Assembly: GCA_023247725.1 (NCBI GenBank)
Contig: JAHFFW010000010.1
Span: 7,734 to 71,733 of the forward strand
DNA length: 64,000 nt
Reading direction: 5' to 3'
Source: Candidatus Omnitrophota bacterium
GTDB taxonomy: Bacteria; Omnitrophota; Gorgyraeia; Zapsychrales; JAHFFX01
The notes below the pieces were generated by a model, which was not told the DNA's origin, made no database searches, and worked only from the letters and a program-made list of their open reading frames with translations. The stretch's first letter is position 1. Every line of letters begins with the position of its first letter. This document shows, piece after piece, positions 25,628-42,481 of the stretch. Both the position numbers and the translations under genes were made by a program.

Positions 25628-25643
25628 TTTTGGAATTAATAAA

Positions 25644-25678
25644 AACCTCCGTTTAATTATCTAGCGGAGGTTTTTTCT
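25644..25678 (+). terminator. rho-independent terminator ending the phage late/lysis transcription unit
   Basis: AACCTCCG-tttaattatcta-CGGAGGTT stem-loop followed by TTTTTTC. Confidence 0.6.
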
Positions 25679-25680
25679 TG

Positions 25681-25709
25681 TTGGCAATCCAAATCATCGG
25701 TGATACAAT
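25681..25709 (+). promoter_or_regulatory. sigma70-like promoter (TTGGCA-17-TACAAT)
   Basis: ttggca atccaaatcatcggtga tacaat lies ~40 nt upstream of the HTH gene start. Confidence 0.5.
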
Positions 25710-25747: not shown

Positions 25748-25945
25748 ATGGTGAAAAAGGAAGAAGTTTTAACCGCAGAAGAAGTTGCGGAATATCTAAG
25801 GATTCATCCGTACACGCTGAGACGATTAGCCCGGGCAGGCAAACTCCCGGGCTTTAAAATTGGTGGGCAGTGGAGGTTTCGGAAAGATGAAATCGACGCA
25901 TGGTCAAAAGGATCTAAGAATAAGAAGAAAAAAGGGAAATCATAA
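25748..25945 (+). CDS. excisionase-family / MerR-type HTH DNA-binding protein
   Basis: LTAEEVAEYLRIHPYTLRRLARAGKLPGFKIGGQWRFRKDEIDAW is the 'excisionase family DNA binding domain' HTH pattern. 65 aa. The stop overlaps the next ATG. Confidence 0.6.
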   Translation: MVKKEEVLTAEEVAEYLRIHPYTLRRLARAGKLPGFKIGGQWRFRKDEIDAWSKGSKNKKKKGKS

Positions 25946-28900
25946 TGCCGAGAATCTTTGACAATATCGATCTTGATTTATTAACGGCCTTAAAAGAAAC
26001 TTTAAACGTTTCTAATCGTGCTGATTTCTGCGTTGGCTATTTTAATTTGAGGGGATGGAGGCAGATAGATTCTTATATTGAACGTTGGGCCGGTGGTGAG
26101 GGAAAGTGCTGCCGGTTGTTGGTCGGGATGTCAAAGTTACCCCAGGATGAATTGCGAGAAGCGCTAAGCCTTGTGAAGAACGAGGAAGGAATTGATAACC
26201 AAACGGCTTTACGCCTTAAGAAGAAACTAGCCGAGGAATTCCGAAACCAGTTAGCTTGGGGTATACCTACAAATGAAGATGAAGTTGGTCTGCGGCGTTT
26301 GGCATCACAAATTAAGGCTCAAAAGGTTGTGGTCAAGCTATTCCTGCGACACCCTCTCCATGCAAAACTCTATCTGCTTTTTCGTCCTGACCCCATTAAC
26401 CCTACTGTGAGTTATCTTGGCAGTAGCAATCTAACTTTCGCTGGTCTATCTAAACAAGGCGAGTTAAACATTGACGTGTTAGACCACGACGCTTGCCAGA
26501 AATTGTCCAGATGGTTTGAAGATAGATGGGATGATCACCGGTGCATTGATATTTCAAAAGAACTGGCAGATATAATTGATGAGAGTTGGGCGCGCGAGGA
26601 GCAGCCCATTCCTTATTACATATATCTTAAAATGGCTTATCACTTATCGCAGGAGGCTCGAGTTGGTCTGTCTGAATTTAAAATTCCAAAGGAGTTTGGT
26701 CAAAAGCTTTTTGAATTTCAAACAGCGGCGGTTAAGATAGCGGCTCACCATATTAATAAACGTGGTGGTGTGCTAATAGGTGATGTTGTGGGCTTGGGAA
26801 AAACACTAATGGCCACGGCCGTCGCGCGCATTTTCGAAGACGATCACGGACTCGAAACCTTAGTCATCTGCCCCAAGAACTTGGTCCCTATGTGGGAAGA
26901 CTACCGAGAGCAATATCGTTTACATGCCAAAGTGCTTTCCATCAATCGTGCGGCGCGAGAGCTTCCAAGTTTACGCCGATACCGCTTAGTTATTATCGAT
27001 GAGAGTCACAATCTTCGTAATCGTGAGGGGAAACGCTATCGAGCAATTCAAGAATATTTGCAGGAAAATGAAAGTAAGGTAATACTGCTTTCGGCTACTC
27101 CCTATAATAAAACCTATTTGGATTTATCTAATCAATTACGGCTTCTCGTTTCTGCTGATAGTGATATCGGGATTCGCCCCGAACGAAAATTGCGTGAAAT
27201 GGGTGAAACCGAATTTATCCGCCAGCATCAGTGTTCAGTTCGTTCTCTCGCCGCATTTGAAAAGAGTGAATATGCCGATGACTGGCGTGAGCTGATGCGC
27301 CTCTATCTTGTGCGCAGAACACGCACGTTCATCCAGGATAATTACGCTGAAACTGATCCAACGAATGGAAGAAAGTTTTTAACATTTGAAGACGGCACGC
27401 GATCCTATTTCCCGACCCGCATACCAAAGACTGTACCGTTTCATATTGACGATCATAATCCATCAGACCAGTATGCTCAGCTTTATGCGCCTGACGTTGT
27501 CGATATAATCAACCATCTCAATTTACCCAGATATGGTCTAGGCAATTATGTAGCCGCCACCCCCCATAAGCCGCCAACGGCAACTGAGCAAAAGATTTTA
27601 CAAGATCTTTCTCGTGCTGGTCGAAGACTCATGGGTTTCTCGCGAACAAACCTATTTAAACGTCTGGAGAGCAGCGGGCATGCTTTTCTCCAATCGGCTG
27701 AACGGCATATCTTACGGAATTTTATCTTTCTTCACGCTATCGAGAATGACCAGCCGATACCCATTGGAACGCAAGACGCCGAGATTCTCGATACACGATT
27801 CTCTGATGAAGATAAAACAGTTGAGTTATTTAACGATAATGATGACGATGGAGAAGTGGCTGAGGAAACGACATCACTAAGGAGTGAAAAAGATTTCAAA
27901 AATCGAGCTTCAGAAGTTTATTCAGAGTATTTCAAATTACACAAACATCGTTTTAAATGGCTGCCGCCGGAATTTTTCGTTAAATCACTGGCTAATGATT
28001 TACGAGCTGACATAGATACACTTATGAGAATTTTGAACAAATGCAAGCAGTGGGACCCTGCCAAGGATGCGAAACTCGATGCGCTTTACGACCTGTTAAT
28101 AAAAAAATACCCGAATGACAAAGTCCTGATTTTTACCCAATTCGCCGACACGGTACGTTATCTTGAGAAACAACTAACTGATCGTAAGGTTGCAAAACTG
28201 GCTGGCGTTACCGGTGACTCTTCTAATCCCACTGCCTTAGCCTGGCGCTTTAGCCCAATTAGCAATAACAAACAAGAGTATATTAAACCAGCTGATGAAC
28301 TTCGTGTATTAATTGCGACGGATATCCTGAGCGAGGGGCAAAACCTCCAGGATTGTTCCGTTGTGGTCAATTTCGACCTGCCCTGGGCTATCATTCGTTT
28401 AATTCAGCGGGTTGGACGCGTAGACCGTATCGGACAGAAAGCCGAGAAAATATTATGTTATTCATTTCTGCCAGCCGAGGGGGTTGAGCAAATTATTAAT
28501 TTGCGCAACCGTGTGCGACAGAGACTCAGTGAAAATGCCGAAGTGGTAGGGACAGATGAGGCATTTTTCGAAGACGACCGCGATGACAGAAGAGTGCTCG
28601 ATCTATATCACGAAAAATCCGGAATCTTGGATGGAGATGCTGACAGCGAAGTGGATCTTGCATCCTATGCCTACCAGATTTGGAAAAATGCTATTACAGA
28701 GAATCCGGAGTTGCAAAAAGTTATTCCTGAACTGCCGGATGTCGTTTACTCTACAAAACCAATTAAGCCAACTGAAAAAGAACCAGAGGGAGTATTGGTT
28801 TATCTTCGCACGGCAGAAGGAAATGACGCGCTCACTTGGGTCAGTAAAGACGGAAAAAGTGTTACCGAATCACAACTTACAATTCTTAAAGCCGCTGAGT

Positions 28901-29322
28901 GCGCGTCCAATACCCCTACAGTCCAGCGCATGGAAGAACATCATCAGTTAGTTCAGAAAGGCGTTGAGCTGATTGTCGCAGAAGAAAAGTCTGTCGGTGG
29001 CCAGTTAGGACGTCCATCGGGTGCGCGTTTCCGGACATACGAGCGTTTGAAACGATATGTAGAGGAAGTAAAAGGCACTCTTTTCGAATCCCAAGAACTA
29101 CTCAAAGCTATTGAGGAAATATACCGCTATCCCCTGCGGTCGACTGCCCTAGACACCCTCAACCGTCAATTAAGAAGCGGTATATCTGATCAGACATTGG
29201 CGGAATTGGTCGTGGCCCTCCGTGATGAAGGCCGATTGTGTATTATTAATGAGGAAGAGCAGGTTCACGAACCGCAGATTATCTGTTCTCTTGGGCTCGT
29301 TTCTAAGCGGGAGGCCAAGTAA
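25945..29322 (+). CDS. fused PLD-family (HKD) nuclease + SNF2-family helicase
   Basis: N-terminal HAKLYLL.....LGSSNLT (HxK...GSxN HKD motif). Then SNF2 motifs GDVVGLGKTLMA (I), VIIDESHNLRN (II, DExH), LLSATPYNK (III), QRVGRVDRIGQ (VI). 1125 aa. Confidence 0.85.
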   Translation: MPRIFDNIDLDLLTALKETLNVSNRADFCVGYFNLRGWRQIDSYIERWAGGEGKCCRLLVGMSKLPQDELREALSLVKNEEGIDNQTALRLKKKLAEEFRNQLAWGIPTNEDEVGLRRLASQIKAQKVVVKLFLRHPLHAKLYLLFRPDPINPTVSYLGSSNLTFAGLSKQGELNIDVLDHDACQKLSRWFEDRWDDHRCIDISKELADIIDESWAREEQPIPYYIYLKMAYHLSQEARVGLSEFKIPKEFGQKLFEFQTAAVKIAAHHINKRGGVLIGDVVGLGKTLMATAVARIFEDDHGLETLVICPKNLVPMWEDYREQYRLHAKVLSINRAARELPSLRRYRLVIIDESHNLRNREGKRYRAIQEYLQENESKVILLSATPYNKTYLDLSNQLRLLVSADSDIGIRPERKLREMGETEFIRQHQCSVRSLAAFEKSEYADDWRELMRLYLVRRTRTFIQDNYAETDPTNGRKFLTFEDGTRSYFPTRIPKTVPFHIDDHNPSDQYAQLYAPDVVDIINHLNLPRYGLGNYVAATPHKPPTATEQKILQDLSRAGRRLMGFSRTNLFKRLESSGHAFLQSAERHILRNFIFLHAIENDQPIPIGTQDAEILDTRFSDEDKTVELFNDNDDDGEVAEETTSLRSEKDFKNRASEVYSEYFKLHKHRFKWLPPEFFVKSLANDLRADIDTLMRILNKCKQWDPAKDAKLDALYDLLIKKYPNDKVLIFTQFADTVRYLEKQLTDRKVAKLAGVTGDSSNPTALAWRFSPISNNKQEYIKPADELRVLIATDILSEGQNLQDCSVVVNFDLPWAIIRLIQRVGRVDRIGQKAEKILCYSFLPAEGVEQIINLRNRVRQRLSENAEVVGTDEAFFEDDRDDRRVLDLYHEKSGILDGDADSEVDLASYAYQIWKNAITENPELQKVIPELPDVVYSTKPIKPTEKEPEGVLVYLRTAEGNDALTWVSKDGKSVTESQLTILKAAECASNTPTVQRMEEHHQLVQKGVELIVAEEKSVGGQLGRPSGARFRTYERLKRYVEEVKGTLFESQELLKAIEEIYRYPLRSTALDTLNRQLRSGISDQTLAELVVALRDEGRLCIINEEEQVHEPQIICSLGLVSKREAK

Positions 29323-29325
29323 ACT

Positions 29326-32300
29326 ATGCCCGTTGCCGTCGTCAATTGCAGGAATTACCTGAGGAATTTTGATCTAAATTCATTGTTTATCGAACAACTG
29401 GGCTGGGACATTCATGCCCAAACGTTGGAAGTCGCTGTTGACGGGAAAAATTTTATTTTAAATGCTGTAGCTCAAAAACGAGGCATGGCCGCATTTGTCC
29501 TTAATGGCCGCATTCCTGATTATTCCACGCGACGCAAAATTGAGCGTCAGGTAGCTAAGTCCGCCCATGAACACCTGATCATTTTTACTGATCCTGATCA
29601 GACAGTCCAAACATGGCAGTGGGTAAAGCGCGAGGCCGGGAAGCCAATCGCCTGCAGAGAGCATATTTATCACCGCAACCAATCCGGAGACGGGCTGATT
29701 CAGAAACTTCAAGCGATTGCCATTAGCATTGAAGAGGAAGAAAGCTTAACGCTTCCTCAAGTCGTTAACCGTGCGCGGACAGCCTTTGATGTCGAACGTG
29801 TCACTAAACGCTTCTATGATTGCTTCAAAACCGAACATGATGCTTTCTTCCGATTTATCAAAGGGATTCCTGATGATGAACTGCACCGCTGGTATGCTTC
29901 CGTTATGCTCAACCGGCTGATGTTCATCTATTTCATTCAAAAAAAAGGCTTCCTCGATGGTGATACTAATTACCTTCAGACGAAATTGATGCAAGCTAAG
30001 CAGCGGGGCAAAGATTGTTTCTATCGCGAACAGCTCTGCCCGCTATTCTTTGAGGGTTTCGCCAAAAAGCCCTCCCAGCGATCAGCCTCAAGTAACAAAC
30101 TTTTGGGCAAAGTGCCTTATCTAAACGGCGGGATCTTTCAACGTCATCAAATTGAAGAGCTTCATGGAAAACAAATTCAGATTTCCGATGCCGCCTTCGA
30201 GAAATTATTCAGTTTCTTTGAACAATACCACTGGCATTTGGACGAACGCCCGCTTCGCTCCGATAATGAAATCAACCCGGATGTTCTTGGTTACATTTTC
30301 GAAAAATACATCAACCAGAAGCAGATGGGGGCGTATTACACCAAAGAAGATATCACGGGCTACATCAGCAAATACACGATCAGTCCGTTCCTCTTCGAGG
30401 CGGCCCGCGGCAAATGCAAAGTGGCTTTTGAAAACCCTAAGGGACCTACTATCTGGGATTTGCTTAAAACCGATCCGGATCGTTATATCTATAATGCTGT
30501 CAAAAAAGGGATGAATCTGCCCCTGCCTCCGGAAATCGCGGCCGGGGTTAAGGACGTTGCCAAGCGCACCGAATGGAACAAACAAGCGTCCGAAGAATAT
30601 GCCCTTCCACCCGAAATTTGGCGCGAAGTCATTGAGCGGCGCAAACGCTATGAAGAAGTTAAAAGGAAACTAACCACAGGAGAAATCAAGGATATCAACG
30701 ATCTCATCACCTATAACCTCGACATTCGCCAGTTTGCCCAGGATGTCATAGAAAATTGTGAAGGCCCGGAATTGCTCCGTGCCTTTTGGCATGGTATTGA
30801 ACCAATTACCGTGCTCGACCCGACCTGCGGCAGCGGGGCGTTTTTGTTTGCCGCCGTGAACATTCTTGAGCCGCTTTACGAAGCCTGCCTTGACCGGATG
30901 GAGATGTTTGTTGAAGAGATGGAGTGTTCTGCTCAAAAACACCGCCCTGAGAAATTTTCCGATTTTCGCAAAATCCTAGAGCGTGTTGCTCAGCATCCCA
31001 ATCGCAGATATTTTATTTTCAAATCTATCATCGTCAATAACCTTTACGGTGTGGATATTATGGAAGAGGCTGTCGAAATCTGCAAGTTGCGCCTGTTTCT
31101 CAAGCTTGTTGCGCAGATTGACCGTGAAGAGCAAATCGAACCGTTGCCCGACATCGACTTCAATATCCGGGCCGGTAATACACTGATTGGCTATGCCACT
31201 TACGAGGAGATGAAAAGCGCCATTACAAGCCGGCTTGATTTTGATAATGCCTTGGATCGTATTGAAAAAAGGGCTCAGGATGTGGATCGACTGTTTAGTT
31301 TATTTCGTCAACAACAGACTGAATTAGGTGGCGAGGTCGCAGCTGAAGATAAACAGGTTTTACGAGATCGCCTTAAATCTCTTGAAGATGAACTCAATCA
31401 GTACCTCGCCAACGAATACGGCGTGGATACCAAGAAGCACGGTCCTTACGAACAATGGCTGAAAACGCATCATCCGTTTCATTGGTTTATCGAATTTTAC
31501 GGCATCATGAAGAAAGGCGGGTTCAATGTCATAATCGGTAACCCGCCATACCTTGAATTACGCGAAGTACGGTATACTCCCCAAAATTTTAAATGTGGGA
31601 ATAGTGGGGCAATCCATGCGATGTGTATCGAACGCAGTGTGCAGTTACTCCATCGACAGGGATGCATGAGCATGATTGTTCCATTGTCCTTGGTCTCAAC
31701 ACAACGAATGCAGATCGTTCAGGAAGTTCTAGAAACTAAACGAAACGCTTGGTATTCAAATTACTCGTGGCGCCCGGGTAAGCTTTTCGATACAGTTAAC
31801 CGCGCCCTGACTATCTTCGCTAGCACGCCATCAGAAAAAGGTAGAACATTCTCGACTAACTATCAGAAATGGACATCTGATAGTCGTGATTTACTTATGT
31901 TAAAACTCAACTTCATTGAAATCTTTCGACCGCGACCGGCTTGTTGGATTCCCAAACTTGGTAATGAGATAGAACCTTCAATTTTAAAGAAATGTTTACA
32001 AGTAAAAGTCCCATTAGGCAGTTTTATCCGAAATAATAATTACAGGATTTACTATCGCACCACTGGAGGCCTCTATTGGAAAGTATTTACAGATTTTCCA
32101 CCCGCATTCAAAGTTAATGGAAAGGTCGGTCACTCCAGTCGAGAAACTAAGTTTTCGTTAACCGACGCAAGATTTGTTTTTCCTGTCATAGCTGTTTTAA
32201 GCAGCGATCTGTTTTGGTGGTGGTACACTATCACAACTAATTGTCGTGATCTTAACCCTTATGATATACAGAATTTTCCTATTCCTGAATCTGCGATAAC

Positions 32301-32562
32301 TGACGCAGCGCTGTCAAGCTTAGGAGAAAAATACCTGAAAGATATTAAGCAAAATAGCATCATGCTGGTTCGTGTTCAAAGACAAACTGGCAGGACTCAA
32401 ACTCAGTCGTTTAAAATCCAAAAGACTAAGGCGATCATCGATGAAATTGACCAAGTGATAGCTAATCATTATAGGCTTAATCAAGAAGAGATAGACTTTA
32501 TCACAAATTATGACATCAAGTACCGCTTAGGTTTCGATGATGAAGATAACGATGAAGAATAG
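29326..32562 (+). CDS. MmeI/PglX-family (type IIG / BREX-like) N6-adenine DNA methyltransferase
   Basis: KVPYLNGGIFQ...LGYIFEKYINQKQMGAYYTKEDITGYI parallels MmeI (FPYINGKLFE...IFGSLFQSI...LGAHYTSEANI). Motif I VLDPTCGSGAFLFAAV and motif IV VIIGNPPYLE (NPPY). The N-terminal ~100 aa contain a possible degenerate PD-(D/E)xK (IIFTD...QWVK). ~1078 aa with a long C-terminal TRD-like region. Confidence 0.85.
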   Translation: MPVAVVNCRNYLRNFDLNSLFIEQLGWDIHAQTLEVAVDGKNFILNAVAQKRGMAAFVLNGRIPDYSTRRKIERQVAKSAHEHLIIFTDPDQTVQTWQWVKREAGKPIACREHIYHRNQSGDGLIQKLQAIAISIEEEESLTLPQVVNRARTAFDVERVTKRFYDCFKTEHDAFFRFIKGIPDDELHRWYASVMLNRLMFIYFIQKKGFLDGDTNYLQTKLMQAKQRGKDCFYREQLCPLFFEGFAKKPSQRSASSNKLLGKVPYLNGGIFQRHQIEELHGKQIQISDAAFEKLFSFFEQYHWHLDERPLRSDNEINPDVLGYIFEKYINQKQMGAYYTKEDITGYISKYTISPFLFEAARGKCKVAFENPKGPTIWDLLKTDPDRYIYNAVKKGMNLPLPPEIAAGVKDVAKRTEWNKQASEEYALPPEIWREVIERRKRYEEVKRKLTTGEIKDINDLITYNLDIRQFAQDVIENCEGPELLRAFWHGIEPITVLDPTCGSGAFLFAAVNILEPLYEACLDRMEMFVEEMECSAQKHRPEKFSDFRKILERVAQHPNRRYFIFKSIIVNNLYGVDIMEEAVEICKLRLFLKLVAQIDREEQIEPLPDIDFNIRAGNTLIGYATYEEMKSAITSRLDFDNALDRIEKRAQDVDRLFSLFRQQQTELGGEVAAEDKQVLRDRLKSLEDELNQYLANEYGVDTKKHGPYEQWLKTHHPFHWFIEFYGIMKKGGFNVIIGNPPYLELREVRYTPQNFKCGNSGAIHAMCIERSVQLLHRQGCMSMIVPLSLVSTQRMQIVQEVLETKRNAWYSNYSWRPGKLFDTVNRALTIFASTPSEKGRTFSTNYQKWTSDSRDLLMLKLNFIEIFRPRPACWIPKLGNEIEPSILKKCLQVKVPLGSFIRNNNYRIYYRTTGGLYWKVFTDFPPAFKVNGKVGHSSRETKFSLTDARFVFPVIAVLSSDLFWWWYTITTNCRDLNPYDIQNFPIPESAITDAALSSLGEKYLKDIKQNSIMLVRVQRQTGRTQTQSFKIQKTKAIIDEIDQVIANHYRLNQEEIDFITNYDIKYRLGFDDEDNDEE

Positions 32563-33151
32563 AACTCCTGCGGATATGGAAACTCGTGAAGTTTCAAGAG
32601 GCCATCACGATTATCCGAATCAACTCATTCGTTGTTTTGAGAATAGATCGCCTTTAATTATCACTATGCAAGGCAACATTTCGATTTTTCGAAATGATAA
32701 ATTGGCCCTCTTTTGTTCGGTCAAATGTCCCGGCAAGGTCATCATTACGCTTTATGACTATATGCAAGCTTTGTGTGAGCAAGGCCAAACGGTCATCAGC
32801 GGTTTTCATTCACCCTTGGAGAAAGAATGCCTCCGCATTCTGCTCCGCGGCCGACAACCAGTTATTATCTGCCCGGCTCGAGCTATTCAAAATATGCGCT
32901 TGCCGGAGGACTGGAAGAAACCGCTTCAAGAAGGCCAACTGCTTTTGATATCGCCTTTCAAGGGAAACCAACGTCGGGTTACTATAGATCATGCTCAACA
33001 ACGAAATGAATTTGTCGCAGCCCTAGCGGACAGGATATTGATTCCCTATTCGTTCCCTGGTGGACGAACGGAAAAACTGCTTGAAAAGATTTCGCGCTGG
33101 AATAAACCCATTCTAACAGATATCGGATCAACCATGCAGTTTGCAAGATAA
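32537..33151 (+). CDS. DprA/Smf-like Rossmann-fold (SLOG) protein
   Basis: YPNQLIRCFENRSPLIITMQGN...LALFCSVKCPG...VISGFHSPLEKECLRILLRG...VIICPA...LLLISPF....RNEFVAALADRILI matches the DprA core (YP.LL..i.dpP.vLy.rG...vAiVGSRk.s...SGlA.GID..aH..aL..gG.tiaVl..gl...vvSE.....RNriiagLs..vlvve). The start overlaps the MTase stop (translational coupling). Confidence 0.65.
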   Translation: MMKITMKNRTPADMETREVSRGHHDYPNQLIRCFENRSPLIITMQGNISIFRNDKLALFCSVKCPGKVIITLYDYMQALCEQGQTVISGFHSPLEKECLRILLRGRQPVIICPARAIQNMRLPEDWKKPLQEGQLLLISPFKGNQRRVTIDHAQQRNEFVAALADRILIPYSFPGGRTEKLLEKISRWNKPILTDIGSTMQFAR

Positions 33152-33235: not shown

Positions 33236-33270
33236 GGCAAGGCCTAAGATTGGTTTTGCCATTTTTTATT
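33236..33270 (+). terminator. weak terminator-like hairpin after the MTase/DprA-like operon
   Basis: GGCAA-(15 nt)-TTGCC followed by ATTTTTTATTTATT. A second hairpin CGACCATT-N12-AATGGTCG lies at 33162-33189. Confidence 0.3.
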
Positions 33271-33305: not shown

Positions 33306-33334
33306 TTGACAAAAATAAAGTCAATTGATATAGT
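33306..33334 (+). promoter_or_regulatory. strong sigma70-like promoter (TTGACA-17-TATAGT) driving the Ubl-conjugation operon
   Basis: ttgaca aaaataaagtcaattga tatagt lies ~40 nt upstream of the first ORF of the operon. Flanked by two CAATTG palindromes, a possible operator. Confidence 0.55.
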
Positions 33335-33375: not shown

Positions 33376-33549
33376 ATGGTCGCAAAACCAACGATTCAGG
33401 AGCTAGAGGCTCTTTTAAATAGTGAAGAGGAGACGCCTATGCAAATTCTTCCTAATGGGGAAATCAGAGCCGTTGGGCAGACAAATCCTGCTGATCTTGC
33501 AGGGAAGAAGCCAATAACCATGAAAGAAGATTTAGGTGGAGAATATTGA
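33376..33549 (+). CDS. 57-aa ORF ending ...KEDLGGEY; candidate ubiquitin-like/Pup-like modifier or conjugation substrate
   Basis: Not in the ORF track because it is under 60 aa. RBS GGAGGTG 6 nt upstream of ATG 33376. The stop overlaps the start region of the E2 gene. Translation: MVAKPTIQELEALLNSEEETPMQILPNGEIRAVGQTNPADLAGKKPITMKEDLGGEY. It is the first gene after the strong promoter. The di-Gly lies 2 residues from the C-terminus, in an operon that encodes E1, E2 and a JAB peptidase. Confidence 0.4.
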   Translation: MVAKPTIQELEALLNSEEETPMQILPNGEIRAVGQTNPADLAGKKPITMKEDLGGEY

Positions 33550-33551
33550 TT

Positions 33552-33926
33552 ATGGATACTGGTCGTATTCAAAGAGAATTTTTAGAAGCCCAAAGAGCCT
33601 TTTCCTACATTGAGCTTCACCCTACTATCGATGGCAAGGTGTACGTAAAGACAGCGCTCCAAGCTTCAAATCAAATGTATATTCTATCCATTAAGTTCCC
33701 AGATGGTTATCCGAACGAGATGCCAAGAGTATTTGTTGATACCCCAGCCATAACGACTGCTCCACACAGATATCAAAATGGCCATATCTGTTATCTTCAC
33801 CCTACGATGTGGAATCCAGGAATTCACAATATTTCTTTTGTAATTGCGCGGGCAGCAAAATGGTTAAACAAATATGAGATTTGGAAACGTCAAGGTCAGT
33901 GGCCCGGTGCGGAGATTAAACACTAA
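33552..33926 (+). CDS. E2-like ubiquitin-conjugating enzyme (UBC fold, catalytic Cys)
   Basis: FPDGYPNEMPRVFV.....PHRYQNGHICYLHPTMWNPG matches the UBC core (..P..PP.v.F.t.i.HPN....G.ICLdiL...WsP). Start taken at ATG 33552 (MDTGRIQ) with GGTGGAG as RBS. Confidence 0.65.
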   Translation: MDTGRIQREFLEAQRAFSYIELHPTIDGKVYVKTALQASNQMYILSIKFPDGYPNEMPRVFVDTPAITTAPHRYQNGHICYLHPTMWNPGIHNISFVIARAAKWLNKYEIWKRQGQWPGAEIKH

Positions 33927-33938
33927 GAGAAGGTAACT

Positions 33939-34472
33939 ATGAAAATAGATTTTAAAACTTTAAAAATGATGGAATTGAGAAGTTCTCCTGGAGAGGTTTT
34001 AGATCGGGTAGCCAGAGATGGGGAGGTATTTGTCATTGAGAGAAATGGTCAGCCCAAAGCATGCCTTGTTCCGGTTTCTTTTCTTCTGCCTGATATTTCT
34101 CCAGAAAGGATAACGGAGGAGTTAAATAAACTTCGCGATAAAAAGGAAAATTATAAATTAACGATTAATGATCATAAGGAACTTGAGATTAAATTTCAGG
34201 AGAGTGCTGCTGGCGAAAATATTGTAATCAGTATCGTGCTGCCACACGGGTATCCCAACGCTGCTCCCAGAATTGACGCACAGGGTATTCCAGAAAACAC
34301 GCCCCATCGATGGCAAGATGGGTCTTTATCGATTTTTGGAACCATAGCAACGTGGAATACCAAGAGTCACGATATCATTTACGCATTAATTGTAGCCAGA
34401 AGTTGGCTTAAGCAATACGCGAAATGGCGAAAAACTGGTGAATGGCCAAAAGATTTGCAGGACGGATCATGA
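33939..34472 (+). CDS. Phd/YefM-like N-terminal domain fused to a catalytically inactive E2 variant (UEV-like)
   Basis: N-terminus LKMMELRSSPGEVLDRVARDGEVFVIERNGQPKACLVPVSFL matches the Phd/YefM antitoxin fold pattern. C-terminus LPHGYPNAAPRIDA....PHRWQDGSLSIFGTIATWN is paralogous to the upstream E2, but the active-site Cys is replaced by Ser. Confidence 0.55.
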   Translation: MKIDFKTLKMMELRSSPGEVLDRVARDGEVFVIERNGQPKACLVPVSFLLPDISPERITEELNKLRDKKENYKLTINDHKELEIKFQESAAGENIVISIVLPHGYPNAAPRIDAQGIPENTPHRWQDGSLSIFGTIATWNTKSHDIIYALIVARSWLKQYAKWRKTGEWPKDLQDGS

Positions 34473-35323
34473 AAAAAGATCAAACATTCGAGAGAATTGA
34501 CTCCCTTTTTGATATTCAACTTTTGGCACCTGTCCGGGTGCTATTCGCTGGCTGTGGCTCCGGTGGAGGAAGTGTAGCTCTCCAACTTGTCATGTCGGGA
34601 ATTCGTAATTTTACACTTTTAGATCGGGATATCCTTGGAGCAGAAAATGTTATTAGGCATGTTTGCGGAAGAAGTTTTATAGGGAAAAAGAAAGTCGATG
34701 CCTTAACGGAAATTTTACAGGACAGGAATCCAAATATCGATGTCAAAAAGATAGAAGCGGACATAATGAATTTTTCGGATATTGAATCAGAAATTTGCGG
34801 ATCTGATGTTGTTGTTTTGGCGACGGACAACGAACCATCCCGTTATAAAATTAATGAAATTTGCGTAAAAAATGAAATTCCTTTTGTCGTGGGACGGGTT
34901 TTTACCAGAGGTATTGGAGGCGAGGTCTTTAGTTATCGACCTGACTCTGGGGGATGTTTGGCTTGTCTTGAATCTTTTTTGCAGCGTACTTCATATAGAG
35001 AAGGGATAAGGGAGATAGATCTTGTTTCTGAGGAAGAGCGGGAGAAAATTTATGGTATGGAAATTTCAGAAATAAAAGACTCCCCCGGTCTGGCGGTGGA
35101 TATTTCCTTTATTACTTCTTTCCATACAAGGTTTGTATTGGACGCTATTGCGCGGCGTTTGAAAGATCGGCCTAAGTATTTGAATTTGATAGATGAAAAT
35201 TATTTAGTTTGGGGGAACCGGCCGGTGCATCCGTTTAAGAAACATTTTCAGTTGCAAAGATTTAATTTAGATCGTCAGGAGAGTTGCGCACTATGCTCGG
35301 AGAGGAATGTGGCCGATGTTTAA
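34469..35323 (+). CDS. E1-like ubiquitin-activating enzyme (ThiF/MoeB family)
   Basis: VLFAGCGSGGGSVALQLVMSGIRNFTLLDRDILGAENVIRH (Rossmann GxGxxG + D.D.v..sNl.RQ) and two CxxC pairs (GGCLACLE...CALCSE). ATG 34469 overlaps the upstream stop (ATGA). Confidence 0.8.
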   Translation: MKKDQTFERIDSLFDIQLLAPVRVLFAGCGSGGGSVALQLVMSGIRNFTLLDRDILGAENVIRHVCGRSFIGKKKVDALTEILQDRNPNIDVKKIEADIMNFSDIESEICGSDVVVLATDNEPSRYKINEICVKNEIPFVVGRVFTRGIGGEVFSYRPDSGGCLACLESFLQRTSYREGIREIDLVSEEEREKIYGMEISEIKDSPGLAVDISFITSFHTRFVLDAIARRLKDRPKYLNLIDENYLVWGNRPVHPFKKHFQLQRFNLDRQESCALCSERNVADV

Positions 35324-36236
35324 ATCAAAAAAGCCAGAGGTTAATATTTATATTCCGAAATCAGCACTTGGTGTGATTTATGATGAATGTGATCAGTATG
35401 ACCTTGATGAAACAGGCGGCAGGCTCATTGGAAATTATAAAAAAAATGGTAATAAATATACAATTGAGGTCTCAGGGATTATAGAACCCGGCCCAAAAGC
35501 GACAAGGACAGCAACGAGCTTTTTTCAGGACGGAGAATATCAGGAGAAGATTTTTAGATCAGTTGAAGAAAAACATCCCGACGTTGAACATCTGGGAAGT
35601 TGGCACACACATCACGTTAATGGCCTTGATACTTTGAGTTCTGGTGATAGGGCTACTTACCAGAGGATTGTCAATCACCATATGCATAATACGGATTTTT
35701 TCTATGCGCTTTTAGTTGTTGAAAAGAAAACCGGCGGGCAACAAAGGTATACGATCAAACATTATTTCTTGCGTCGCAAAGATTCGGCGATTTATGAAAT
35801 TCCGGACTCACAGGTTCACATTATAGATAAGCCCCTCATTTGGCCGTTCAGCGGCGCAAATAATTATTTACCGTCGTCTATACCTAAGGCTGTGGAGGTC
35901 AAAAGCAACTCCAATCAGGAACGTGTCAAAGATCAAGAATTTTTCGCTGAATTTTATTCCGGCTTTAAGCCTTTATTCTCAAAGAACACGAATGCCTTTT
36001 ATTGGAAAGGTAAATTGAATCTTGTTGATAACACCTTTTTAGACGTGGTGGTTATAGAAAATCAGGATGATCATGGATGGGCCTATTCGATCGCTGTTGC
36101 TGATCAGATCCCATCAATATCCAATATTTTGACAAGTTACAAAGATCGTACCTTTAAATCTGCAAGGCTTGCCGTGTTTAATATAGAGAGAAACATCAAT
36201 CAAGGAATTTATCTTAAAAAGGAATCAAATGTATGA
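35307..36236 (+). CDS. JAB/JAMM (MPN+) metallopeptidase, deubiquitinase-like
   Basis: ETGGRLIG ... HLGSWHTHHVNGLDTLSSGD fits the JAMM motif E...H(S/T)H-x7/8-S-x2-D. Confidence 0.8.
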   Translation: MWPMFKSKKPEVNIYIPKSALGVIYDECDQYDLDETGGRLIGNYKKNGNKYTIEVSGIIEPGPKATRTATSFFQDGEYQEKIFRSVEEKHPDVEHLGSWHTHHVNGLDTLSSGDRATYQRIVNHHMHNTDFFYALLVVEKKTGGQQRYTIKHYFLRRKDSAIYEIPDSQVHIIDKPLIWPFSGANNYLPSSIPKAVEVKSNSNQERVKDQEFFAEFYSGFKPLFSKNTNAFYWKGKLNLVDNTFLDVVVIENQDDHGWAYSIAVADQIPSISNILTSYKDRTFKSARLAVFNIERNINQGIYLKKESNV

Positions 36237-37072
36237 ACATTATCACAGTCAATGTTGGTCAAGGTGCCCTTTCCTTGGTAAGACATAATAAGGAAGCAAT
36301 TGTAATTGATTCTAGAATTCCACCTTCAGATGACAAAACTGTCGCTTATGTGAAAGAAATGTTGATGGTGTCGCTAAAGGATCACTATGTTAAGGGTCTT
36401 ATATTAACCGGTTTTGATAGTGATCATTCGGATATAACGGGAGTTTCTATTATTCTCCGTAAGTATCGCCCTGATTGGGTCGTGTATCCCAAGTACTATA
36501 AGGAGAGTGAAGAGGCGAGATCGGTTTTTGAACGAATAGAACAAGAGGAAAAAGAAAGATGCAGTTCAACAAATCCTTTGAAAAGAATTTCTGTTAGACT
36601 TGATCAACTAAAGAATCGAAAACTTGTGGGGCTCTCTTCAAACTTTGAGTTTGAATTATTTTCTCCCCATATTGAGGATATGGACTGTTCTAACAATTGC
36701 AGTATTGTACTTAAATTGTCTGGAATCGGGGCAGGCGGTTTTTCATATTTGATAACGGGCGATACAGAAAATGAAAGATGGGAAACAATTAGCAAATTTT
36801 TTGGCGAGGCTCTTAAATCTCATATTTTGGCTGCGCCGCATCATGGCTCAAAAAACGCTACCCATCCCGCATCCCTGCTTCATATTGAACCTCACACTGT
36901 ACTTATCAGCGCTGGCGTAGACAATCAATATGGCCATCCCGACCCGGAGGCCTTAAGAGTTTATAGCCGGGTTGCAAAATTTGTATTCTCCACAAATATG
37001 CAAAACGGTGTTTCACTTTTTACGCGGGACGGAATAACCGGATTTACCACGGAATTGATCCCAAGTAATTAG
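36233..37072 (+). CDS. MBL-fold protein, ComEC/Rec2 C-terminal nuclease-like, degenerate motif I
   Basis: VNVGQGALSLV...AIVIDS...LILTGFDSDHSD (HxHxDH degenerated to GFDSDH) ... ITGDTE...ILAAPHHGSKNA (ComEC-type HHGS). ATG overlaps the JAB stop (ATGA). Confidence 0.65.
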   Translation: MNIITVNVGQGALSLVRHNKEAIVIDSRIPPSDDKTVAYVKEMLMVSLKDHYVKGLILTGFDSDHSDITGVSIILRKYRPDWVVYPKYYKESEEARSVFERIEQEEKERCSSTNPLKRISVRLDQLKNRKLVGLSSNFEFELFSPHIEDMDCSNNCSIVLKLSGIGAGGFSYLITGDTENERWETISKFFGEALKSHILAAPHHGSKNATHPASLLHIEPHTVLISAGVDNQYGHPDPEALRVYSRVAKFVFSTNMQNGVSLFTRDGITGFTTELIPSN

Positions 37073-37148
37073 TATATGTGCAATGCTATGTTAAGAGTTC
37101 TGTTATTCTTGTGTGTCAACGCAGTCGGAAAATATCGAAATGAGGTAA

Positions 37149-38249
37149 ATGGATATGGGTTATGATGTAGATTTTTTACCGGTAGGTGACGGAGAGAAGG
37201 GGGGCGATGCGATTGCTGTGCGATGGGGAAATCTAAACGGGAATCGCACAGAACAGAAAGTAATGGTCATTGATGGAGGGACGAAAGATTCAGGGAATGC
37301 TCTTGTAAAACACATTAAAGAATATTACAAAACTGATTTTGTTGATTATGTATTTTGTACTCATCCGGATGCCGATCATGCCTCTGGATTAACGGTTGTC
37401 TTAGAAGAATTAAAAGTTGGTATCTTGTGTATGCATCGTCCATGGGAACATGCCGCAGATATTAAAAATTTGTTTCAGAATGGGAAGATAACAGCAACGA
37501 GTCTCAGAGAAAATCTTCGTAAGGCACTCGAGAACGCGCATGAACTTGAAAGCATTGCGACTAAAAAAGGTATCAAGATTTTTGAGCCGTTTTCCGATAG
37601 TGTTACGAATTCAAATTCTCCATTGACAATTTTAGGACCCAGTGAGGAATTTTATCAATTGATGCTTGCTAATTTTCGGGAAACGCCCAAGCCGAAGGAT
37701 AATGTTAATATTCTCGGTCGCAGTGCTATACTTACCGCCGTTCGGGAAGCAATCCGATGGATAGGGGAAACATGGGGAGTGGAAACCCTTGCAGATCCTG
37801 AGGAGTTTGAAACGAGTGCAGAAAATAATTCCAGCGTTATACTTCTTTTACAGGTTGATGGAAATAAGCTTCTCTTTACGGGCGATGCAGGTGTTGAATC
37901 TCTTGATGCTGCTATTAATAAAGCAATTACTTTGGGGATTGATTTAACGGGTATTTCCTTTATTCAAATTCCGCATCATGGGAGTAAGCATAATGTCAGT
38001 CCATCTCTACTCGATAAACTGGTTGGTCCTAAATTAACCAATGATATTTCTAATAAAACAGCGTTTGTGAGTGTGCCCTTAAAGGGAGATCCAAAGCATC
38101 CATCAAGGAAAGTGACAAATGCCTTCAAAAGGCGAGGTGCGAAGGTTATAGCAACAAAAGAAAGCACGAAACATCATTTTAAAGATGCCCCTGATCGCGG
38201 CTGGGTTAAGGCGGAACCATTGCCTTTCTATGACCAAGTTGCTGATTAG
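37149..38249 (+). CDS. MBL-fold protein, ComEC/Rec2 C-terminal nuclease-like (paralogue of 36233..37072)
   Basis: VDFLPVGDGEKGGDAIAV...VMVIDGGT...YVFCTHPDADHASG ... LLFTGDAGVESLD...IQIPHHGSKHN. The start may be ATG 37155, which has better RBS spacing. Confidence 0.65.
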   Translation: MDMGYDVDFLPVGDGEKGGDAIAVRWGNLNGNRTEQKVMVIDGGTKDSGNALVKHIKEYYKTDFVDYVFCTHPDADHASGLTVVLEELKVGILCMHRPWEHAADIKNLFQNGKITATSLRENLRKALENAHELESIATKKGIKIFEPFSDSVTNSNSPLTILGPSEEFYQLMLANFRETPKPKDNVNILGRSAILTAVREAIRWIGETWGVETLADPEEFETSAENNSSVILLLQVDGNKLLFTGDAGVESLDAAINKAITLGIDLTGISFIQIPHHGSKHNVSPSLLDKLVGPKLTNDISNKTAFVSVPLKGDPKHPSRKVTNAFKRRGAKVIATKESTKHHFKDAPDRGWVKAEPLPFYDQVAD

Positions 38250-38972
38250 ATGTTAAAAGGAATCGATGTGATAAGACACGATAACTATACTTGGTATGCG
38301 CGGATCTATCCGGTCTTCATTGTTATCTTTCCGATAACCCTTGTTTGCATGGTTTGGTTTCAACCGTTGCTAGGATTTCTGACGGGTATCCTAAGTTCAG
38401 GGATAGCGAGTATTTTGTTTTCGCAGTTAGGGCGTGACCAAGGGAAATACAAGGAATCTAAATTATTTGAACTGTGGGGAGGGAATCCCGCTGTTCGCAT
38501 GCTTAGATATCGTGATTCGGTGTTAAGTCAGGTTACGGTTAGACGGATTCATGAGAAGCTTGCGAGTTTGGTGGCCAATACATATGCTGTGAACGAGAAA
38601 GAAGAAAAGGAAGATGCGGTAAAAGCGGATACTGTTTACACGTCGTGGGTTGAATGGTTGCGATCAATGACGCGGGATCAGAGTAAATTTTATCTTCTTT
38701 TTGCAGAAAATAAAAATTATGGATTCCGAAGAAATCTTTGGGGCATGAAATCCATAGGAATTTTGGTTTCCGTTTTATCATTAGTTGCGATCACTATTGC
38801 GCTTTATAGTGAATGGATGCGGATCGGATCTATTTCTTCGATAACTTTAGGGGCTTTTCTTTTCGTCATCTTTTGTTTTATTTTTTGGGTCTTTTGCTGT
38901 ACACCAAAATGGATACGCATTACTGCTGAAGCATATGCTAAACAACTGTTAGAGACTGTAGATCAGTTATAA
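38250..38972 (+). CDS. 4-TM membrane protein (2 TM + soluble loop + 2 TM), candidate effector or anchor
   Basis: Hydrophobic helices at ~18-40 and ~42-62 (IYPVFIVIFPITLVCMVWF; GFLTGILSSGIASILFSQL) and ~165-185 and ~195-215 (IGILVSVLSLVAITIALY; ITLGAFLFVIFCFIFWVFCC). Last gene of the operon; the start abuts the MBL2 stop. Confidence 0.5.
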   Translation: MLKGIDVIRHDNYTWYARIYPVFIVIFPITLVCMVWFQPLLGFLTGILSSGIASILFSQLGRDQGKYKESKLFELWGGNPAVRMLRYRDSVLSQVTVRRIHEKLASLVANTYAVNEKEEKEDAVKADTVYTSWVEWLRSMTRDQSKFYLLFAENKNYGFRRNLWGMKSIGILVSVLSLVAITIALYSEWMRIGSISSITLGAFLFVIFCFIFWVFCCTPKWIRITAEAYAKQLLETVDQL

Positions 38973-41555: not shown

Positions 41556-41885
41556 ATGGCTTATGATGAAAAATTGGCAAAACGTTTGAGTCAATTGATT
41601 GCTCAACGTAATGATTTTTATGAACAGAAAATGTTCGGTGGGGTGGGATTCCTCCTGCACGGAAATATGTGTTTCGGCATTTACAAAAATTACTTAATTC
41701 TACGCCTGGGAGAAGAGCAAGCCAAAAAGGCCTTGAAGAAAGCAGAGACCAAACCGTTTGACATCACCGGCCGTGTGATGAAAGGTTGGGTCATGGTAAC
41801 ACCCGCCGGAATGAGTTCAGAGAATACTTTACGGCGATGGGTGACAAAGGCGATTGCTTTTGTTTCTCAGTTGCCTCGCAAATGA
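41556..41885 (+). CDS. TfoX N-terminal domain protein
   Basis: LAKRLSQLIAQRNDFYEQKMFGGVGFLLHGNMCFGIYKNYLILRL matches the TfoX_N signature (..MFGg.g.y.ng.mfa.i....l.lk). Confidence 0.55.
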   Translation: MAYDEKLAKRLSQLIAQRNDFYEQKMFGGVGFLLHGNMCFGIYKNYLILRLGEEQAKKALKKAETKPFDITGRVMKGWVMVTPAGMSSENTLRRWVTKAIAFVSQLPRK

Positions 41886-41924: not shown

Positions 41925-42481
41925 ATGCTCATCGAAGCAACACAGAAAGCCTTTCAGGAGAAGCGATTTCCCTCCCTTTTAATCATTGGTAATTTTATCG
42001 TCGAGTTTCTACTCATTCATCCCTTTCAAGACGGCAACGGCCGCGTCTCCCGCGTTTTGACCAATCTCTTGCTGTTAAAAAACGGCTATGAATATACACT
42101 TTATATTTCTCATGAGAAATTGATTGAGGATAACAAGGCCGACTATTACATGAGCTTGCGCAAGGCGCAAAAGACCATGAGGACCAAAAATTCGGATATT
42201 GTACCCTGGCTGGATTTTTTTTGACGATTATGTATCAGCAATCAACGATGGCTTTGGAGCTGCTTTCCAAGGAGCATGCCGAAAAAATCTTTTCTTCGAA
42301 ACAAATTGCGGTCTGGGAATATTTGAAATCAGTGGAAGAAGCTGCACCAGGCGAGATTTCCAAACGCACTAAGGTCGCGCGCCCAACGGTGGCCCAGGTG
42401 TTGGATAAACTGCTTCGGTTAAAGAAAATCGAACGGATTGGATTAGGGCGATCAACCCGATATAGAAAATTGTTATTATAA
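41925..42481 (+). pseudogene. Fic/Doc family gene remnant (N-terminally truncated and frameshifted from its C-terminal wHTH part)
   Basis: 41925..42224 encodes only the Fic core HPFQDGNGRVSRVLTNLLLL, with in-frame stops immediately upstream. 42221..42481, in another frame, encodes a winged-helix segment (..ISKRTKVARPTVAQVLDKLLRLKKIERIG.GRSTRY) of the kind found C-terminal in Fic proteins. Confidence 0.5.

Follow-up and report, generated by a model that had tools for sequence, protein, structure and literature searches.

A DprA-fold protein linked to an HKD-SNF2/methyltransferase restriction-like module in a phage genome

Canonical DprA/Smf is a recombination mediator in natural transformation and loads RecA onto single-stranded DNA (ssDNA). 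The locus studied here raises the question of what a protein of this fold does at the end of a restriction-like operon carried by a phage. We analysed a stretch of 64,000 nucleotides (nt) from a Candidatus Omnitrophota bacterium (contig JAHFFW010000010.1, positions 7,734 to 71,733; hereafter the window), which is a phage genome, with genes for a terminase, a portal, tail protein J and a tail fibre upstream of the operon. The DprA-like open reading frame (ORF) lies at 32537-33151 on the + strand, behind genes for an HKD-SNF2 protein and a DNA methyltransferase. For this gene, we could establish the fold and family placement of the product, the operon, a conserved linkage, co-divergence with its partners and fusions to methyltransferase domains; the product probably tunes how the restriction-like system handles DNA.

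Fold and family placement of the DprA-like protein

The DprA domain occupies the entire 204-residue protein, so that there is no space for a SAM domain or a DML1 extension. Pfam PF02481 (DNA_processg_A) matches residues 17-169, corresponding to profile positions 8-161 of 212 (E 9.9e-10, 38.4 bits versus a gathering score of 29.6), and the same domain is present in 120 of the 120 homologues among the matches listed. In an AlphaFold2 model based on 34 homologues (mean predicted local distance difference test score 91.8, predicted template modelling (TM) score 0.87), a Rossmann domain extends over about residues 16-195, and no other Pfam domain was found. An earlier, sequence-only reading of the locus had described the protein as a stand-alone DprA-like Rossmann domain free of SAM or DML1 extensions, and this description holds.

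We then compared the model with the structures in the PDB using Foldseek. The best match was ShosA (8zva, E 5.8e-12, TM score 0.75), followed by the DprA proteins of three bacteria (3maj, 3uqz and 4ljk, E 1.9e-11 to 3e-9, TM score about 0.7), whereas the MoCo-carrier protein, YpsA and LOG appeared only at E 2.7e-4 or weaker, with TM scores of 0.5 or less. Because the ShosA and DprA matches far outscore those of LOG, the MoCo-carrier protein and YpsA, the modelled protein is placed in the DprA clade of the SLOG superfamily. This agrees with the sequence-only reading, which had called the protein DprA-like, would have been refuted by placement in a LOG or TIR-like family and had proposed this very comparison as a check.

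Sequence searches place the protein at some distance from the characterised members of the clade. A phmmer search of the PDB sequences with the protein itself gave chance matches only, while a profile of the family retrieved DprA and ShosA at E about 3e-4 to 2.5e-3 (Streptococcus pneumoniae DprA, 3.4e-4); the top match of that profile, a designed helical repeat, was judged spurious. Among defence profiles, the PADLOC PsyrA profile matched residues 19-185 of the window protein (profile positions 97-263 of 398, E 4.4e-18), and the ShosA profile gave a faint match. PsyrA was also matched by all 34 of the aligned family members (best E 1.1e-25) and was the top-scoring defence profile for each, with ShosA being matched by 10. 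The TIGR00732 equivalog for DprA scored 26.1 bits, against a cut-off of 191.15. The protein is thus a DprA-clade member that is not an orthologue of DprA, PsyrA or ShosA.

The family is large. A word-indexed search gave 4,545 clusters at 90% identity, nearly all of 180-260 residues, and an exhaustive profile search of clusters at 50% identity gave 4,910 at E ≤1e-3 and 698 at E ≤1e-30. Its members come from metagenome-assembled genomes of Acidobacteriota, Planctomycetota, Nitrospirota, Desulfobacterota, Chloroflexota, Cyanobacteria, Verrucomicrobiota and others. No PHROG family matched the window protein at E ≤1e-5, no homologue was found in 50,697 deposited phage genomes, and the plasmids searched gave one weak match only. 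The family is widespread among phyla and phage-borne in the window, and it has no characterised member.

Linkage to the HKD-SNF2 protein and the methyltransferase

The operon consists of four genes, which encode, in order, a small helix-turn-helix (HTH) protein, the HKD(PLD)-SNF2 protein, the Eco57I/MmeI-type methyltransferase and the DprA-like protein, with terminator-like hairpins at both ends. From SNF2 to methyltransferase to DprA-like gene, the junctions are gaps of at most 3 nt or overlaps, if the last gene is read from its first ATG. The HKD-SNF2 protein (25945..29322, + strand, 1125 residues; Pfam PLDc_2, SNF2-rel_dom and Helicase_C; PADLOC 'HKD+Snf2', E 1.2e-53) combines a single N-terminal HKD (PLD) nuclease domain with an SNF2/SF2 ATPase, and its motifs H139-x-K141, GSSN, GKT and DESH are invariant in 15 homologues; it is the predicted restriction subunit. 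The next gene (29326..32562, + strand) encodes a gamma-class N6-adenine (N6A) DNA methyltransferase of 1078 residues (Pfam Eco57I, E 2e-23, MmeI_Mtase and DUF7814), which is matched over its full length by the PADLOC profile REase_MTase_IIG ('Type IIG', 1022 bits) and has a PglX/MmeI-like N-terminal domain, the motifs DPTCGSG and NPPY and a C-terminal target-recognition region. As no canonical D...ExK or PD-(D/E)xK motif was found in that N-terminal domain, the HKD domain was taken as the nuclease of the system. At the level of motifs, the module has what an ATP-dependent restriction-modification (RM) system of the Type I/III/ISP-like kind requires, namely a nuclease, an SF2 translocase and the S-adenosylmethionine-binding and catalytic motifs of a methyltransferase, and it is predicted to be a restriction-like defence system.

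We looked at how the DprA-like gene is joined to this pair. Its first ATG (32537) gives a 26-nt overlap with the methyltransferase gene, whose stop codon is at 32560-32562; two further ATGs, at 32552 and 32576, are alternative starts. The latter, which codes for M14 and is 13 nt past the methyltransferase stop, corresponds to the start of most homologues, and the longer N-terminus is common to the three nearest homologues. A strong Shine-Dalgarno sequence was sought at the three candidate ATGs and none was found. The translation start is unsettled, with translational coupling plausible from either start. Among 30 loci, the distance from the methyltransferase to the DprA-like gene is -2 to 46 nt in nine and 0.3-5.6 kb in the other 21, and in a second set the two genes adjoin directly in 14 of 33 (4-nt or 0-6-nt junctions), with inserts in the remaining 19; over both sets, the inserted genes take up 0.25-5.6 kb. 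The translational coupling proposed in the sequence-only reading is thus compatible with the junction in the window, but it is not general.

To what extent the three genes belong together was followed from both ends of the module. A scan of genome contigs with the single DprA-like sequence gave no matches, and an alignment-based scan yielded 79 loci, which were searched with the SNF2 and methyltransferase proteins of the window. For the 43 loci with at least 7 kb of upstream sequence, an intact methyltransferase gene lies upstream on the same strand in 28; a full SNF2 gene accompanies it in 23, and in the other five the sequence breaks off before all of the SNF2 gene, or the start of the methyltransferase, is covered. 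Eight loci hold only remnants of the SNF2 and methyltransferase genes and seven hold neither. Across phyla, identity is 55-75% for SNF2 and 43-71% for the methyltransferase. From the other end, 80 metagenome loci were found by SNF2 alignment. Of these, 23 were informative, their methyltransferase being homologous to that of the window in its C-terminal region and 2 kb or more of sequence lying downstream, and 15 of the 23 have the DprA-like gene. The linkage to a PLD-SNF2/methyltransferase pair, noticed first in the window, therefore holds across many phyla (intact methyltransferase in 28/43 loci, 23 of them with full SNF2; DprA-like gene in 15/23 loci).

A second subtype has the same HKD-SNF2 protein and a longer methyltransferase (1140-1340 residues) that matches the one of the window only at residues 1-358 and about 480-742 (L142 13394-18608; L152 5065-9827; L156 5501-10818; L158 13357-18877). 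The DprA-like gene occurs in none of its ten loci, several of which have an AAA_21 ATPase gene followed by a gene of about 200 residues. Together, the presence in 15 of 23 loci and the absence from the second subtype imply that the DprA-like gene is a frequent accessory of one subtype and is not obligatory.

In about 60-70% of loci, variable defence-island genes lie between the methyltransferase and the DprA-like gene (L009-L081 and L086-L165; for example, L054 8023-9720, L038 8389-9730 and L109 8114-9169). They include Schlafen AlbA_2-HATPase_c_4 (21 loci), DUF3800, Macro, Fic, RhuM, AAA_21 and DUF932 genes, and the slot is a source of candidate accessory defence genes; the operon of the window has no insert. 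The cargo of the slot is the same in kind as that found within Type I RM operons. The unit ends with the DprA-like gene, as the genes 3′ of it are unrelated from one locus to the next.

The divergence of the three proteins is correlated. Pairwise-distance matrices from the 33 loci in which each gene is present in one full copy gave Mantel r values of 0.67 for SNF2 and the DprA-like protein, 0.56 for SNF2 and the methyltransferase and 0.52 for the methyltransferase and the DprA-like protein (p ≤0.0005 in all three cases); in the 18 loci with inserts, the DprA-like protein gave 0.62 with SNF2 and 0.31 with the methyltransferase. This correlation implies that the three genes travelled together, which supports one unit and is no proof of a physical interaction. 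In several loci, deletions have left scars, some of them clean, in which SNF2 is cut off after its first 40-300 residues and runs into the C-terminal part of the methyltransferase, with the DprA-like gene intact downstream (L074 6090-6361; L008 5681-8301; L021 5362-8759; also L015, L042 and L065). From these sequences, the restriction core seems to have been inactivated repeatedly.

A further connection comes from fused genes. The best 150 cluster representatives of the family include eight fusions of 688-770 residues with one architecture, in which the N-terminal domain of the methyltransferase (about residues 3-135 of the window protein) is followed by the S-adenosylmethionine-binding domain (about 430-740) and the DprA-like domain, without a target-recognition region (L166 8136-10415; L167 5159-7324; L168 3201-5324; L169 6001-8256; L171 525-2606). 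In the four fusions that were read, motif I 'CGxG' is retained and the homology ends just before NPPY, which is replaced. Full-length identity between two of them, P0130 and P0145, is 46%, and the fusion is therefore an evolved family and not a one-off deletion. We read the fusions as a Rosetta-stone sign of cooperation between the DprA-like domain and the N-terminal and S-adenosylmethionine-binding parts of the methyltransferase, and, by its sequence, the fused family looks like an exapted version of the methyltransferase/DprA-like pair.

A proposed role and the explanations that compete with it

We next considered which residues of the protein could serve a function. The protein is basic, with an isoelectric point of 9.66 (family median 9.2). 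In 220 family members, conservation is at least 94% at S61, D74, G89, F90, H91, E95, E97, R115, R121, R134, R147, R156, N157 and C60/C64/C98/C112, and the conserved basic residues are R104, R115, R121, R134, R147 and R156; position 134 is R in 94% of the family and Q in the window copy. The DprA signature S-x-[FY]...R-N is retained, and the DprA loop 'G-x-A-x-G-I-D' (GxxxGID) has become an invariant 'G-F-H-S-P-x-E-x-E'. Helicobacter pylori DprA (HpDprA) contacts ssDNA through R52, R143 and R170 (PMC12961424). In a sequence alignment, its R143 falls on R156 of the 'R-N' motif, which is 99% conserved.

The sequence-only reading had suggested that the protein could bind ssDNA or a nucleotide signal and so direct or restrain the PLD-SNF2 nuclease. 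As a tentative explanation, and the one that we prefer, the DprA-like protein may be a nucleic-acid-binding accessory subunit that is docked on the methyltransferase and keeps the HKD-SNF2 nuclease from damaging its own side. At the core of this system are the single-HKD nuclease fused to an SNF2 translocase and a separate N6A methyltransferase that has its own target-recognition region. The DprA-like protein would dock on the N-terminal or S-adenosylmethionine-binding part of the methyltransferase and, once docked, could bind ssDNA or gapped DNA arising from replication, repair or translocation intermediates. It might then bias the system away from self-damage, either by shielding the DNA from the nuclease, by favouring methylation or by passing breaks to RecA. 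Such a role would be one of restriction alleviation or resemble that of a type IV antitoxin, by analogy with ShosA and RqlI/PsyrA. We favour it because of the DprA fold, the basic charge and conserved basic residues, the operon, the linkage, the co-divergence and the fusions, as well as the precedents of ShosA, RqlI and HpDprA.

Several observations weigh against this explanation. Of the three arginines through which HpDprA contacts ssDNA, only the equivalent of R143 is strictly conserved in the family, as R52 aligns with V62 (with K/R63 adjacent) and R170 aligns with the variable E183. The invariant S61, H91, E95, E97 and D74 and the four cysteines suggest, in sequence, a pocket for a small ligand, a metal or catalysis rather than a plain DNA groove. 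The gene is missing within 2-7 kb of downstream sequence in about one third of the SNF2+methyltransferase loci (8/23), and is therefore not needed for viability; the sequence-only reading had named a gene both dispensable and unlinked in homologous loci as its refutation, and the gene is not obligatory but is linked. The DprA-like gene also survives intact the deletion of SNF2 and methyltransferase, a sign that it may have a function of its own, and the co-divergence could stem from co-inheritance alone. Finally, the fusions sit outside defence contexts, in housekeeping-like neighbourhoods without SNF2 (one beside metK, L166; one coupled to RmuC, L167; two syntenic with asparaginase and an MFS transporter), and P0130, P0145, P0213 and P0233 carry Q at H91 and A/V/G at C64, three of them also S at C112.

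The DprA fold, the basic surface and the linkage would serve equally for a sensor that detects invader-specific DNA, be it injected DNA, ssDNA ends or an intermediate of replication or recombination, and that recruits or licenses HKD-SNF2, being required for restriction rather than for self-protection. ShosA has been proposed as the ssDNA sensor of its own system (PMC12961424), and the divergence of the DprA-like protein follows SNF2 more than the methyltransferase (0.67 versus 0.52; in loci with inserts, 0.62 versus 0.31). However, a component required for restriction is hard to reconcile with SNF2+methyltransferase pairs that have no DprA-like gene (8 of the 23 informative loci and 10 of 10 in the variant subtype). 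The target-recognition region of the methyltransferase already supplies sequence recognition, and the natural fusions join the DprA-like domain to the methyltransferase and not to the nuclease, so we consider a sensor of this kind rather unlikely.

The conserved pocket could instead belong to a SLOG-type regulator or enzyme, which would bind or process a nucleotide, an S-adenosylmethionine-related metabolite or a modified base and relay this to the methyltransferase. S61, G89-F-H91-S-P, E95, E97, R115, R121 and 'PGG[KR]TE' are residues that might line such a pocket, an assignment from sequence that we regard as improbable. The family's 'PGG[KR]TE' is similar to the LOG motif 'PGGxGTxxE', and its invariant polar and acidic residues are not found in canonical DprA. 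The pattern C60/C64/H91/C98/C112 (CCHCC) is present in 187 of 220 members (85%), and the four conserved cysteines may form a Zn or Fe-S site; C98 and C112 are jointly replaced by V/V or V/A in six members, and the putative metal site is therefore not essential, which counts against this reading. The fusions keep the S-adenosylmethionine-binding motif I and lose the catalytic NPPY, with one of them lying beside metK, and the SLOG domains of ThsA sense cyclic ADP-ribose (PMC11204291). Yet the modelled protein matches LOG, MoCo-carrier and YpsA far less well than it matches DprA and ShosA, and no signal-generating enzyme is conserved in the operon. On balance, a ligand-dependent regulator or enzyme seems unlikely.

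It is very unlikely that the gene is an independent passenger that tends to be found next to the RM pair in defence islands, for instance an orphan antitoxin, a gene for recombination or anti-restriction, or one that pairs with a variable upstream gene such as Schlafen AlbA_2-HATPase_c_4, since, even though variable genes part it from the methyltransferase in 21/30 loci (19/33 in the second set), a Schlafen-type gene, present in 21 loci, is often directly upstream and the gene is intact in seven loci without a trace of SNF2 or methyltransferase and in eight with remnants, its orientation and terminal position are constant in essentially all loci, it joins the methyltransferase directly in 14/33 loci and, with no insert, in the window, its co-divergence with SNF2 persists across inserts (r 0.62), its domain is fused to methyltransferase domains and no single alternative partner is conserved.

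Three features are poorly explained by every one of these readings: the invariant H/E/E/Cys pocket, the intact DprA-like genes that remain after deletion of SNF2 and methyltransferase, and the absence of the gene from roughly a third of otherwise intact systems. A broader form of the docked-subunit explanation, which is possible though doubtful, is that HKD-SNF2, the methyltransferase and the DprA-like protein make up a distinct three-component class, in which the docked subunit would read ssDNA or gaps, or a nucleotide or S-adenosylmethionine-related ligand, and switch between modification and restriction; this subunit would be ancient enough for exaptation, in some lineages, as a dead-methyltransferase fusion. 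How ATP-dependent restriction systems spare their own transiently unmodified or single-stranded DNA and become established in a new host is only partly understood, and a dedicated subunit would offer a testable handle on both.

Phage setting and comparison with known systems

The operon lies in a lower-GC accessory stretch of the phage genome, 3′ of the tail fibre gene, and all large ORFs of the window are on the + strand. A terminator-like hairpin with a T-run at 25642..25678 (+ strand) closes the preceding tail/accessory unit; it was read by eye, straight from the sequence (aaaacctccg...cggaggtttttt), and was not reported by the hairpin scan. It is followed by a sigma-70-like promoter at 25681..25709 (+ strand; TTGGCA-17-TACAAT, TG-extended), a candidate from its consensus match alone (10/12 positions). 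The first gene, at 25748..25945 (+ strand), encodes a 65-residue HTH_17 protein of the MerR/excisionase type (Pfam HTH_17; PADLOC mad1, E 3.2e-11), and its stop shares 1 nt with the SNF2 start. By its domain, this protein is likely a regulator, possibly of the controller type, with a homologue preceding SNF2 in only 7 of 98 related loci. An intrinsic-terminator-like hairpin with a 9-bp stem and a T-run at 33236..33260 (+ strand) ends the four-gene operon.

Directly after it comes a separate operon (33376-38972), opened by its own strong promoter-like site at 33306-33334. This operon encodes an E2, an E2-like protein, a ThiF-type E1, a JAB deubiquitinase-like protein and two proteins of the metallo-beta-lactamase fold (PADLOC PDC-M48B, 340 bits; LmuA-like), and from its gene content it looks like a phage-carried candidate for ubiquitin-like conjugation defence. 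Further along the accessory region are small genes with a TfoX_N domain (41556-41885) and a Fic domain (41925-42224). TfoX is a competence regulator in some bacteria, and the presence of a TfoX_N gene in the same accessory region as the DprA-like gene may be a coincidence.

As a whole, the module resembles the ATP-dependent RM-like systems (DISARM/BREX-related) in its SF2/SNF2 translocase with a nuclease, its Eco57I/PglX-like N6A methyltransferase and the accessory genes in the operon. Modules of HKD-SF2 and N6-methyltransferase are known in ATP-dependent RM-like and in 'BREX-related' systems, the latter being built on a DUF499 ATPase, and the word DprA does not occur in two comparative-genomics papers (PMC12839542, PMC10853773); a PLD+SNF coding sequence beside a Type IIG-like methyltransferase has been noted in passing (PMC9881135). 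Class 1 DISARM was rejected, as DrmA, DrmB (DUF1998) and DrmC are absent from the four-gene operon and the DrmD score of 134.9 bits falls far short of the cut-off, 610. BREX-related (BR) Type-2 (PMC12839542) was rejected as well, with no DUF499 ATPase or DUF3780 in the operon or its neighbours (Pfam) or in the homologous loci (ORF clustering). The window operon differs from BREX in that PglZ and BrxC are absent and the PglX equivalog score is far below its cut-off. MADS, which had been raised by the HTH~mad1 match, was rejected because the methyltransferase scores 12.9 bits against the MAD2 cut-off of 720; in addition, mad1 is an accessory component of a widespread regulator type in the MADS model, and DprA is unmentioned in the MADS paper.

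The DprA-like protein itself can be set beside three kinds of characterised protein. With canonical DprA/Smf it shares the Rossmann-like DprA fold and the S-x-[FY]...R-N signature, but it has no SAM or DML1 domain, falls below the TIGR00732 cut-off, has the GxxxGID loop replaced and is encoded in a phage restriction-like operon and not in a competence context. H. pylori DprA blocks restriction enzymes and stimulates methyltransferases by direct contact (PMC3597690). ShosA, the type IV antitoxin of ShosTA (8zva, 9vzo), provides the nearest solved structure and is a DprA fold in an anti-phage system; it binds RecA as well as ssDNA, and it neutralises ShosT although the two do not bind each other (PMC11961720, PMC12961424). 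The window protein differs from ShosA in having 16% sequence identity to it, no SAM domain, no phosphoribosyltransferase (PRTase) toxin in its operon and two of the three ssDNA-binding arginines not kept.

With PsyrA/RqlI the protein has a DprA-like core in common, and RqlI/PsyrA restrains RqlH, a genotoxic SF2 helicase encoded upstream (PMC4670107). PsyrA, however, has an N-terminal region and a C-terminal HTH, whereas the window protein matches the core only (97-263 of 398), and the partner in PsyrTA is a RecQ-like helicase-PRTase, compared with HKD-SNF2 and a methyltransferase here; no RecQ-PRTase was seen beside the DprA-like gene in the window operon or in the homologous loci (ORF clustering). 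In Halomonas meridiana Hm43005, a PsyrT/PsyrA (DprA-like) pair lies within a BREX-1 operon and adjoins PglX, an Eco57I-type methyltransferase (PMC11232893), a further instance of a DprA-like gene beside a methyltransferase of this class.

The view in the sequence-only reading that DprA-like conflict proteins have rarely been characterised is outdated, given the work on ShosA (PMC11961720, PMC12961424) and RqlI/PsyrA (PMC4670107). No description of a DprA-like component of an HKD-SNF2/Eco57I RM-like system was found in open-access papers and bioRxiv preprints. In summary, the module is of a known general kind, RM-like, and its conserved third component, the DprA-like protein, was not found described in the searchable literature. 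DprA-fold proteins, such as ShosA and RqlI/PsyrA, are emerging as couplers of genotoxic defence effectors to the state of cellular DNA, and the present family would extend this theme of DprA-fold regulation to restriction-modification.

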